IMG/VR virus record: IMGVR_UViG_3300035499_000517 | Coordinates: 32,001-96,000 of that record | Source: a virus | Taxonomy: Duplodnaviria; Caudoviricetes | Direction: 5' to 3' (one strand) | Length of the DNA stretch: 64,000 bases | Shown: in pieces, positions 27,889 through 32,714 of the stretch | How positions within the stretch are numbered: the stretch's first letter is position 1 | Layout of the letters: each line of letters opens with the position of its first letter | Made by a program: the position numbers and the translations under genes | The notes under the pieces: model-generated | What the model was told of the DNA's origin: nothing | The model's input: the letters and a program-made list of their open reading frames with translations, nothing else | Database searches by the model: none

Positions 27889-30471
27889 ATGTTTATAAGA
27901 GAAATTATCTTAGAAAACTTTCAGAATTTAAAGACTGGAATTGGAGTAAACAAATTAGAATTAGACTTCACAAAACAAAAGAATCCAGTCTGTATTATTA
28001 TTGGTCCAAACGGTGCAGGGAAAACGAGTCTATTAAGTTATTTGACTCCATTTGCTACCGTTGGAGATTTGGATATAAGAAATGCAACGAGACCCATCAT
28101 AAAAGGAAAGAATGGGTATAAGAAGATTGTATTGCTTGATGACGAACGAAATGAATACGTCATCGAGCATTTTTACACCCCAAAAAGCGATGGAGCATTT
28201 ATCATCAAGTCTTATTTTAAGATGAATGATGTGGAATTAAATGAGAATGGAAATGTCACATCATTTAAGGATTTGGTAGCAGAGCATCTGGATATTGAGA
28301 TGAGTTACTTAAAGCTCATAAGAATGGGTGATAATGTAAAGAATCTCATTACATCAAGAGGAGCAGAGAGAAAAGTCTTTGCTACGAAAATCTTAGAGGA
28401 AGTGGATTGGTACTTAAAGCAATATAAAGAAGCTTCTCAAAGAGAGAAAGATACAAAAGCAGTTATTGGTCATATCATTGATGAAATCAAAAAGACTTCT
28501 GTAGAAGATGAAAAGAAGTCTGAGATTGAGATTGCTGAGATGAATCAGGAGCTTGCTACATTAGATGCTGTAATTGCAAAAGTAAATGAAGAACTCACAC
28601 GATATAAATACGATTACGAGAAGTTAAATATCGGTGGAGATTTTCCATTTCTTTTAAAGGCAGCAACGAAACGAATAGAATCATTTACGAATGCATTAGA
28701 GATTGCAAAGGCAGAAAGTCTGGACTTAAAGAAAGCCAATAAGAAGTTGGAATCTTTATCCTTACTGGAAGTTGAATTACAAGGAAAAGTAAAAGCAGCT
28801 TCTGATGTCATTTCAAGAATCTTACAGGATATTGATAATGAGATGAATGAACTCGATGAAATCAAAGCTTCGATTAAGAAAGAAGAAAAGGATTTAAATC
28901 TGGAATCTTTAGAGAATTACTTTCATGATTTACGGAAACGTACAAATCATGCTTATCGAAGTGCTTTTGATGAGAGAACTGTCAACTGTTCAAAAGAAGA
29001 GTTTGATGAGTTCGTGGTATTCTTAAAGAATATCCAGTCACAGTTAAATCTCACTTATGACTTCGGCAAAGACCCGATTAAGAAAGTCTTAAAAGAGATG
29101 AAAGCAAATAACGATATTCCATCTCTTATCAAAGCTTCTTTACTTACAATTGAAGCACAGGAGAATGCAGAGCGATTATCATTAGTAGACAGGATTATCA
29201 ATCGTTATGCAGGAATTAAAATTACTTGTGAACAGGAATGTCCATTAAAGCAACTTCACAAAGAACTACTTGACATCAAAGATGCTGTTCCAGTTGCTTC
29301 TGTAAAATATACTTCTGAGTTTTATCATATGATGCAACTTGCTTATGATAACTTAACGAATGTCTTTTCTCAGCTCAATGAGAAAGCGGAGTTTATTCAG
29401 AAGCTTCCTGAAGACATTCAGAAATTCTTCCTTGTAGATAATCTTTACAAGAAGATTGGAAATGCAGAATGCATCTTCGATGATAAACTTATCAATGATT
29501 ACATTTCTTTCTTGACAGAACGAGAAAATTATAATCAGTTGAAGAAAGAATGTGATGAGGTTGAAAAAGATCTCATTAAAATGAAAGCATTGAGTAAGAT
29601 GGAGTTTTTGACAAAGCAACGAGATAAGATCTCTTCTCATATAGAAAAGCTCCAAGAAGAACTCGAAGATGAGAAAGCTTCAAAAGAAGCAGTAGAAGAT
29701 GAACTTCGTAGTTGTAGATCTGATATCACTTCGGTTCGGACTATTTCTGAAGCTCTTACTGAATATGATGAAGCAAAAACAAATTATGAGGATATCACAA
29801 AACGTGATGAAGAAGGTAAGAAATTATCTTCAAGAATAGGGGATTTAGACTCTCAATTGAATGAGTTTAATCAGCGTCGTTATTTGTTATCCCTAGACGT
29901 GTCCAGCAAAGAGTCAAAACTTAAAAGATATCGTGATTTAGTAACTCAATTAGAGGATTATCGCTTGCTTTATGAAGACTATTCGAACTTAAAGTTCGCT
30001 TTATCGGGAACAACAGGTATTCCACTTGAACATATCCGAGCATACTTTAAGAAAGTCACAAAGATTGCAAATGAACTTCTTGATATTGTCTATCATGGAG
30101 ATTTATATCTTGATAAGTTTGAGATTACTGAGAATGATTTCTTGATGCCTTACGTGAAAAATGGAGTTCGTATCGATGATGTCTCTTCTGCTTCGCAGGG
30201 AGAAGCCAGCTTCTTTAATATGGCGATCTCTTCTGCACTTCGAGCAATGAGTATGTCACGTTATAATGTAGGACTCTATGATGAAGTAGATTCCATGTTT
30301 GATGATAAAAACCGACAAAGATTTATTCCTGTCTTAGAGAAACAGATGGAGCTTAATAACATCAGACAGGCATTCTTAATTACACACAACATGATGTTTC
30401 GTCAGTATCCAGTTGATATTATTAACATGGAAGACTTAGATAAATCCACTATTGGTGTAAAATACGAGTAA
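27889..30471 (+). CDS. sbcC: SbcC/Rad50-like SMC ATPase
   Basis: Walker A GPNGAGKTS; long coiled coil with CEQECP hook; signature ASQGE; Walker B LYDEVD; LITH. Confidence 0.9.
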   Translation: MFIREIILENFQNLKTGIGVNKLELDFTKQKNPVCIIIGPNGAGKTSLLSYLTPFATVGDLDIRNATRPIIKGKNGYKKIVLLDDERNEYVIEHFYTPKSDGAFIIKSYFKMNDVELNENGNVTSFKDLVAEHLDIEMSYLKLIRMGDNVKNLITSRGAERKVFATKILEEVDWYLKQYKEASQREKDTKAVIGHIIDEIKKTSVEDEKKSEIEIAEMNQELATLDAVIAKVNEELTRYKYDYEKLNIGGDFPFLLKAATKRIESFTNALEIAKAESLDLKKANKKLESLSLLEVELQGKVKAASDVISRILQDIDNEMNELDEIKASIKKEEKDLNLESLENYFHDLRKRTNHAYRSAFDERTVNCSKEEFDEFVVFLKNIQSQLNLTYDFGKDPIKKVLKEMKANNDIPSLIKASLLTIEAQENAERLSLVDRIINRYAGIKITCEQECPLKQLHKELLDIKDAVPVASVKYTSEFYHMMQLAYDNLTNVFSQLNEKAEFIQKLPEDIQKFFLVDNLYKKIGNAECIFDDKLINDYISFLTERENYNQLKKECDEVEKDLIKMKALSKMEFLTKQRDKISSHIEKLQEELEDEKASKEAVEDELRSCRSDITSVRTISEALTEYDEAKTNYEDITKRDEEGKKLSSRIGDLDSQLNEFNQRRYLLSLDVSSKESKLKRYRDLVTQLEDYRLLYEDYSNLKFALSGTTGIPLEHIRAYFKKVTKIANELLDIVYHGDLYLDKFEITENDFLMPYVKNGVRIDDVSSASQGEASFFNMAISSALRAMSMSRYNVGLYDEVDSMFDDKNRQRFIPVLEKQMELNNIRQAFLITHNMMFRQYPVDIINMEDLDKSTIGVKYE

Positions 30472-30651: not shown

Positions 30652-32599
30652 ATGGCACATGTAGTACGAACAGAAGTCATTAATTTGAAAAATGAATATG
30701 TCGTGGCTGACCAAGTCTCATGGGATCGATTATTCTATGATGACATTATGAACCATGATGGATTTGTTATTTCAGAACCTGCCGTCTTATCATTAGATGG
30801 TAGAAAAGAGAAAAATATGTTTGGACCAAACTCTCCACTGTTTGGAACCACTTATGGTGACGAGCAGGCATTTATGGAAAGGCATAGATGTAAATGTGGA
30901 GAATTTAAAGGACTACGTTTCAAAGGTGAAATTTGCCCTTTCTGTGGTACAAAGGTAGAAGCCAGAGATATGGATATCAAAAAGACTGGCTGGATTAGTT
31001 TGGGTGATAATGTTTTAATTAGCCCTTACTGGTATAAGATATTTGAAAGAACCATTGGGAAGAAACCATTTGCAGAGATGGTGGAAAGAATCGAAAGAGT
31101 TGATGCTGATGGTAATCGTCATGAGGTCGCTTATGATGAGGATCATCCACCATCATCTCCATTTGCTGGAATAGGAATCGACGGGTTTTACGAAAGATAT
31201 GATGAGATACTCGATTACTTTGCAGCAAAGAAAAAAGATAAGAGGGAACAACTGAATCAGGCAAAGCGTTGTAAATACAAAGCTTTCATTCATCATATTC
31301 CTGTATATTCGACTTTCTTAAGACCATCATCGGTTACAGCTGATACATTCTATTTCAATGGTATTGATAAAGAGATAAATACATTGGTTAACTTATCTAT
31401 GACGCTCAGGGATTGTGAGCCCATAGAGAAACCCTTTATTCAAACACATATGCAGACTAGACTGCAAACCATGTGGGAGTTGAACTTCAACCAAGTCTCG
31501 CAAAAGAAGGGATTTATACGTAATAAGATCATATCAGGTTCCCTAAATTATACGAGTCGCTCAGTCATAACGCCGGATCCAACACTTGCTGTAGATCAGG
31601 TAGACATGAGTTATCAGGGATTTCGTATCTTATTTAAATATAAGATTATTTACTACTTGATGAAAATACTTAATATATCGCTCTCTGATGCCTACATGAT
31701 GTGGAAAGATGCATATAAGAAAGACGATTACGTTCTTTCTATTATGAATTATATAGTAAAGAAAGAAAAACCGAGGATTTTATTAAATAGAAATCCTACA
31801 ATCAATCTGTATTCAATGCTTATGTTAAGAATACGCCGGGTGAAGGACGATTGGAAGAGGACAACGTTGTCTGTTCCTTTATTTATTTTAGCCGGTTTGA
31901 ATGCCGATCAACGAATCACCGCAAGGTCGGGACGTGTGGTAACACATAGTCGAGAAGTACGTGAACGTTTAACAAACGGTGTTAATCATTCATTAAGAAT
32001 GGTTAGCTAACGGTAGAAGTTAAATAAGACTGTTTATATGATAATTATAGACCGTATATAGGAAGTCCTATATATCGACCATAGACGAATGAGCTTCGTA
32101 AGAGAGCCTGGGTCCAAGAAATTGGATAGCCTGGTAATACCGTGCCAAGCTTTAGTAATAAAGAAGGTGTAGAGACTATTTATGTAGGGCTTAGTTTGAG
32201 GGCTAAGTTCGAAGCGCGTACCTCCTAGAATAATCTAGGATGAAGATATAGTCCGTGTTATAATGTGGAAATAGCACATTTGATGGTGATATCTTGAATC
32301 AGATTGCATTAGTTCAACCAGAATTCGTAAAGATGTTTAGAAAGTTTAGTCCAATGGAGAAATACATCATGAACCGTGAAGATGGATCTCTCAACAAACT
32401 CTTTGCAGTTGGTAAGGGACAGCTTATCGATTTCTATCACTTCTCAACCTTTAAGAATGAAGAAGGTCTTGAAGAGATGGATGAAGAGAAACTTTGGGCT
32501 TATATCAAACAGACTGAGAAGGAAAGTACCAGAAAGGTCATTTATATGCCGAATGGTGAAATCCGTAAAGTTTATCCAGAAGATCTGGTCGTTAAATAA
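30652..32599 (+). CDS. Phage multisubunit RNA polymerase beta'-like (N-terminal) subunit; join(30652..31908,32279..32599), 525 aa
   Basis: Zn-finger RCKCG..ICPFCG; SRSVITPD; LLNRNPTI; catalytic LNAD|FDGD reconstituted only after removing 31909-32278; early motif upstream suggests the non-virion RNAP. Confidence 0.9.
31909..32278 (+). mobile_element. Group I intron (370 nt, no homing endonuclease) in the RNAP catalytic motif
   Basis: P1 CCGAU/GUCGG with U.G at the 5' splice site; P3 GUACGUG/CGCGUAC; P4 ACGGUA/UACCGU; R GUAGAGACUA and S AAGAUAUAGUCC (P7); P8 CCUAGA/UCUAGG; P9 GUGUUAU/AUAGCAC; P10 with the 3' exon. Confidence 0.92.
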
Positions 32600-32714
32600 T
32601 TTTTGTATATTCGAGAGGAAGTGTCTATTAAGATGCTTCCTCTCTTTATTTTTTTTAAAGATATATTTTATTATTGCTCTGGACTGTTTTATAAAGGAAG
32701 GAGATGATTGCTTT

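Follow-up and report, generated by a model that had tools for sequence, protein, structure and literature searches.

A guanosine at the last position is near-universal among group I introns and is taught as essential to their splicing mechanism, and in the Tetrahymena intron an engineered G-to-A change at this position severely impairs exon ligation. The published natural exceptions that we traced comprise one coral mitochondrial family and one Coxiella rRNA intron. The hexacoral mitochondrial intron ND5-717 ends in A, not G, and its exons are perfectly ligated in vivo (PMC8146996; PMC6545197), which confirms the coral ND5 precedent that the first-pass annotation of the DNA described here had named. 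The other exception is Cbu.L1917 in the 23S rRNA of Coxiella burnetii, which the title of its description presents as self-splicing and as having no terminal G (Raghavan et al., 2007, J Bacteriol 189:6572; cited in PMC5423948 and PMC11270868). Introns are also found in the RNA polymerase (RNAP) genes of jumbo phages, as the same annotation had stated: gp210 of phage PhiPA3 carries a group I intron in a conserved region of the RNAP beta gene (PMC11620839), and the annotation of g270 of phage AR9 divides its CDS into two pieces, between which lies a gene for an HNH homing endonuclease (g271).

In this report, we describe a group I intron that ends in A and interrupts a phage RNAP gene, using the term "window" for the whole 64,000-nucleotide stretch of viral DNA that was analyzed. 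Given the ND5-717 and Cbu.L1917 precedents, the phage intron is a rare but already documented exception to the terminal G. It adds the case of a small intron from a phage, set within a catalytic motif that is both essential and highly conserved, and its further value lies in the combination of an RNA junction, a canonical guanosine pocket, natural A-ending and G-ending sisters, and a structural correlate in the form of a long P9.0 and P10. This correlate turns a curiosity into a simple bench question about the choice of the 3' splice site.

The interrupted polymerase gene and the intron core

The gene and its intervening sequence are laid out as follows.

30652 to 31908, plus strand: exon 1, RNAP beta'-N-like, 419 codons, ending ...LAGLNAD
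31909 to 32278, plus strand: group I intron, 370 nt, ORF-less, splitting NAD|FDGD
32279 to 32599, plus strand: exon 2, FDGDILNQ... up to the stop codon; the exon strand of P10 is made up of the first 12 nt

In a profile search exon 1 matches PHROG 2987 (E 2e-47), and it also matches the Pfam family RNA_pol_Rpb1_2. Its relatives in characterized phages include BpSp gp018, in which the matches to the two exons are directly contiguous, and AR9 g270, which corresponds to the N-terminal half of beta' in the non-virion RNAP. By sequence similarity, the gene is thus assigned to the non-virion RNAP beta'-N genes of giant phages, like AR9 g270. As it stands in the window, the open reading frame at 30652-32010 (plus strand) includes the NAD codons and then continues into unrelated sequence, giving a read-through product of 452 residues that other contigs encode in exactly the same form. 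A protein search returned 228 metagenomic homologues, of which the full-length ones read ...GLNADFDGDILN..., that is, an intron-less NADFDGD; one of these (P0003) aligns with exon 2 at 62% identity over residues 423-520, starting at F423 straight after NAD. Because the homologues read NADFDGD uninterrupted and exon 2 aligns right after NAD, 31909-32278 must be an intervening sequence. In the letters themselves, AAT GCC GAT (31900-31908) is followed by caacgaatcaccgcaaggtcggg..., and ...aatagcaca (to 32278) is followed by TTT GAT GGT GAT (32279-32290), with GAT|TTT the sole junction that restores the catalytic three-Asp motif. Directly upstream, at 27889-30471, lies a gene for an SbcC/Rad50-like ATPase of 860 residues (PHROG 77), a neighborhood that is kept in all related loci.

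The first-pass annotation had called the insert a group I intron with a canonical G-binding pair in P7 and had proposed an Infernal comparison with a group I model. That comparison succeeded in part: in a local search of 501 nt the Rfam model RF00028 matched 32025-32274 with an E-value of 2.4e-6, at a score of 31.7 bits that falls short of the gathering score of 50. An Rfam search of the whole window gave no match at the gathering threshold, nor at E-values up to 0.1. The RF00028 alignment misplaces P3 and sets the final G of the model on G32274. The structure was therefore examined by means of a hand-built model (P1, P2, P3, P4, P6, P7, P7.2 and P8) scored on an alignment of five ORF-less relatives. 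This structure comprises 80 pairs in 14 helices, with 95.5% of positions paired and 30 compensatory pairs; among the controls, 0 of 500 shuffles were as good, and slid versions were only 34 to 40% paired. The strands that define its core are given here.

31957 to 31963, plus strand: 5' strand of P3, partner 32215-32221; 7 pairs, 4 of them with compensatory changes
32010 to 32015, plus strand: 5' strand of P4, ACGGUA, partner UACCGU at 32138-32143; invariant in the five relatives
32172 to 32178, plus strand: 5' strand of P7, GAGACUA; A32173 is bulged and G32174 belongs to the guanosine-binding pair
32249 to 32254, plus strand: 3' strand of P7, UAGUCC; C32253 pairs with G32174, and J8/7 (GAUGAAGAUA) lies just before

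P3 and P7 cross to form a pseudoknot, matching the expectation for a group I core. The guanosine pocket is canonical, with the G32174-C32253 pair beside the bulged A32173, and GAUGAAGAUAUAGUCC agrees with the Rfam consensus for J8/7. Relatives with a terminal G have an identical pocket, and the pair has not been switched from G-C. The model match, the covariation and the pseudoknotted core together establish a group I intron inside NAD|FDGD, and the annotated G-binding pair stands as it was described.

An early candidate for P3, GCUUCG/CGAAGC, failed on covariation, the true helix being that of 31957-31963 with 32215-32221, whose 5' strand sits upstream of the start of the RF00028 match. In most group I introns J3/4 is a short joiner only. 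Here the segment between P3 and P4 (31964-32009) holds two small hairpins, at 31966-31978 and 31981-32007, both of which covary, and these may be the reason why RF00028 starts late and scores low. Searches of the 64-kb window with family alignments (nhmmer) found no second copy of the intron, and searches of phage DNA yielded nothing beyond short matches to the core of unrelated phage introns.

Splice sites, spliced RNA and the spread of the allele

Both ends of the intron are set by helices that involve the exons or abut the last intron base.

31904 to 31930, plus strand: P1, formed by exon CCGAU plus intron C (31904-31909) with GGUCGG (31925-31930)
31915 to 31925, plus strand: P10 guide strand, AUCACCGCAAG, pairing with 32279-32290
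32255 to 32277, plus strand: merged P9.0/P9 hairpin, GUGUUAU/AUAGCAC, 7 continuous bp abutting the last intron base, -5.4 kcal/mol
32278, plus strand: last intron base (omega), an A; in 16 related introns the terminal G stands here

The wobble of P1 at the 5' splice site is formed by U31908.G31926. Among the relatives P1 covaries with the third base of the Ala codon in three states (GCC/GUCGG, GCG/GUCCG and GCU/GUCAG), which bears out the earlier placement of this site by P1 and its U.G wobble. P10 has 11 bp with A32283 bulged and an energy of -11.1 kcal/mol, a value equaled or bettered by 26 to 42 of 5000 shuffles (about 0.005 to 0.008), and in all relatives it starts at base 1 of exon 2. P9.0 joins the three bases that follow P7 to the three that precede the last intron base, reading GUG/CAC and then A in the window, and this 3-bp helix covaries in the relatives (ACG/CGU, GUC/GAC, GUG/CAC and ACA/UGU). 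The 3' site, which the first-pass annotation had derived from the 11-bp P10 and the reading frame, is now fixed by four independent lines: P10, the covarying P9.0, the frame with NADFDGD as read in the homologues, and an RNA contig.

We also considered the placement implied by the Rfam alignment, in which the 3' splice would follow G32274. Joined to U31908, this gives GAT CAC ATT TGA, which ends in a stop codon, and any in-frame alternative reads NATFDGD with loss of a catalytic Asp. The placement is rejected on these grounds, and it is likewise at odds with P9.0, with P10 and with the RNA contig.

The RNA contig, of 151 nt and depth 6, was assembled from run X1, a gut metatranscriptome. In it, 31908 is followed directly by 32279 and the 370 nt between them are absent; there are 0 mismatches over 31872-31908 and 32279-32392, and the position of the junction is unambiguous. 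The join is exactly the GCCGAT|TTT that the first-pass annotation had predicted. As observed in this single assembled contig, which stands in place of raw reads, the intron is still accurately excised and its exons are ligated.

Besides the window, six contigs (L050 to L055) show the terminal A, and in each of them the intron is identical at all 370 positions. Their sources are JGI assemblies together with Logan assemblies of several runs. One of the six carries a SNP elsewhere, and two (L054 and L055) belong to a diverged strain, which differs at 16 positions in exon 1 and by about 2% in flanking DNA. The annotated A at 32278 is thereby upheld in seven contigs and two strain backgrounds. Between the window and L054, a 1.3-kb block around the intron (31348-32648) is free of any difference amid the roughly 2% divergence, which points to recent exchange between strains. 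The block has the look of a recent tract of gene conversion or homing type, though the intron itself encodes no endonuclease.

Sister introns at the same site

We compared 18 distinct introns at the NAD|FDGD site, as the first-pass annotation had suggested for the terminal base: 16 have a terminal G and two a terminal A, the latter being the window type and L013. Pattern scans of IMG/VR and JGI metagenomes revealed no further A-ending introns and a few more that end in G. L013 corresponds to the L012 intron with its P9 region swapped for one of the L073 type, the terminal base being G in L012 as well as in L073. Since L013 derives from these G-ending types, the two A-ending introns arose independently.

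Among the 18 introns compared, seven continuous base pairs against the last base occur only in the two that end in A (GUGUUAU/AUAGCAC in the window and GUUUGGA/UCCGAAC in L013), the others having at most 4 bp. This association between an absent G and strong helices has a sample of two A-ending introns. The P10 helices of these two (-11.1 and -11.4 kcal/mol) belong to the strongest class, the other introns ranging from -1.0 to -11.4 kcal/mol; G-ending sisters such as the L029 and L016 types combine a weak P10 with a short P9.0. Because P10 in the G-ending L012 and L073 is as strong as in the A-ending introns, the strong helices look permissive rather than like a specific repair.

The catalytic region of this gene is a hot spot for introns, with at least four sites: after ...NYTSR, at NAD|FDGD, after FDG (as in AR9 g270) and after FDGD. 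The relatives in question are P0127, P0129, P0135, P0123, P0128, P0033, P0050, P0065 and P0066, together with the loci L069-L071. A single 90% protein cluster holds three different intron arrangements. At one locus (L009:4258-5341) a sibling whose exon protein is 99% identical carries a homologous intron of 1084 nt at the same site, with a short P10, a terminal G and an ORF in P6 whose opening, as read from the translation, is GIY-YIG-like. At another, where the intron follows FDG, the sequence ggactaaacgctgacttcgatgg (L069:3749-3771) and the window's ggtttgaatgccgattttgatgg (31894-31916) encode the same amino acids and are heavily recoded, as would be expected from escape from homing endonucleases or from co-conversion by them. 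Two runs labeled freshwater metagenome (X2 and X3) contain only parts of relatives, with loose ends at 32288; the loose end upstream of exon 2 equals the 3' terminus of the intron that the sibling carries after FDG, so either phage relatives occur there or the run labels are loose.

Exon ligation with a terminal A, and comparison with known systems

Taking this evidence together, we think it likely that the insert is a genuine ORF-less group I intron whose terminal G has changed to A and which is accurately removed, the strong P9.0/P9 and P10 helices holding the 3' site. The first step would be ordinary, with exogenous guanosine in the unchanged P7 pocket attacking after U31908 of the P1 wobble. 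In the second step the terminal A would be unable to make the usual contacts with the G pocket, and the 3' splice site would be docked instead by the 7-bp P9.0/P9 stem, which runs to 32277, and the 11-bp P10, which begins at 32279. The P9.0/P9 stem may stack beneath P7 and the long P10 may lie on the opposite side, so as to dock the scissile phosphate between them. On this structural model the two helices would compensate for the missing G, and we infer that the second step is probably self-catalyzed and protein-independent. By analogy, the intron also fits an idea from the coral literature, that a terminal A may suppress hydrolysis at the 3' splice site and circularization (PMC8146996). A bolder proposition, which we put forward tentatively and regard as possible rather than probable, is that exon ligation in this lineage has been freed from placing the last base in the G pocket and that the clamp of P9.0 and P10 let the G be lost twice independently.

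The alternative that survives best, though we consider it unlikely, is that exon ligation depends on a phage or host protein, such as a maturase-like factor, an RNA chaperone or a helicase, so that polymerase output would be coupled to that factor. Numerous group I introns depend on proteins in vivo, and an A should bind poorly in a G pocket that has stayed unchanged. Against this, the analysis brought up no candidate factor, the intron itself is without an ORF, and the strong P9.0 and P10 offer an explanation that needs no protein; the Coxiella intron, too, is called self-splicing without its terminal G, at least in the title of the paper.

A second alternative holds that splicing cannot finish, that this gene copy is dead or dying, and that the spliced contig has its origin in contaminating DNA or in an allele without the intron. 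It draws on the fact that the RNA evidence is one assembled contig in which the terminal base of the strain is unseen: run X1 also contains pieces of the intron, with no contig over 32081-32278, and some of these pieces carry mismatches, showing that related strains are present in X1. Against it, a search of 5.8 billion protein clusters gave no homologue between 99% and 76% identity, while all nine members of the 90% protein cluster are interrupted, at NAD|FDGD or at neighboring sites. The exons of the contig match the window perfectly, whereas the exon flanks differ in the sibling with its intron after FDG and in the L009 type. Moreover, the intron is present in at least eight assemblies and two strain backgrounds, within a recently exchanged block, and the catalytic motif of an RNAP subunit is present in the gene. 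We accordingly give a dead gene copy a low probability.

The first-pass annotation had gone further and read an alternative hairpin, AAUGUG/CACAUU, as a possible switch; together with the terminal A, it would hide the 3' splice site and gate RNAP synthesis. The 6-bp complementarity does exist (32262-32267 with 32275-32280, -4.6 kcal/mol), and folded in isolation the local structure extends into exon 2 and reaches -8.3 kcal/mol. Yet the native P9 stands at -5.4 kcal/mol, and the gain over the native P9 fold, with P7 bases excluded, is -1.0 kcal/mol, the smallest among 15 distinct introns, with G-ending relatives gaining up to -6.2 kcal/mol. Nor does L013, the second intron that ends in A, conserve the pairing. 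The switch thus did not hold up and appears very improbable, and the associated idea that slow or factor-dependent splicing gates RNAP production is speculation. Finally, a sequencing or assembly error at a true G, which has prior expectation alone in its favor, is excluded for practical purposes, as the identical intron with the same base recurs in six further contigs of different runs, two of them from the 2% diverged strain; the allele circulates.

Returning to the docking of the 3' site by P9.0/P9 and P10, the intron would, if this reading is true, be the most tractable system so far for the role of the terminal G in the second step, being 370 nt long and ORF-less and having sisters at one site. 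There is a consequence for annotation as well, in that introns of this kind in the polymerase genes of phages will be mis-called or missed by terminal-G rules and Rfam thresholds.

With regard to introns in related genes, that of PhiPA3 lies in another subunit, encodes an HNH endonuclease used in phage competition and is reported with no unusual terminal base (PMC11620839). The AR9 intron at g270/g271 is closer, as it occupies the same gene family and also falls within the catalytic Asp motif; it differs in being inserted 8 nt downstream, after DYDG, and in carrying the HNH gene. Among introns of the bacterial world, Cbu.L1917 resembles the phage intron in being a group I intron without the terminal G, so far as the title of its description goes, and differs in its bacterial rRNA host, its lineage and its insertion site. 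Its terminal base is reportedly A. The Tetrahymena mutants raise the same question, namely how the last intron base is matched to the nucleoside pocket in P7: Michel and co-workers in 1989 and Been and Perrotta in 1991 are said to have found that an A-ending Tetrahymena intron works with an A-U pocket pair. The phage intron, unlike those mutants, keeps the G-C pair. A further parallel is ND5-717, which likewise ends in A and has its exons ligated in RNA. ND5-717 is giant, obligatory, vertically inherited and organellar, with genes in P8 and with back-splicing reported, whereas the phage intron is 370 nt long, optional and recently exchanged, and has G-ending sisters at the very same site.
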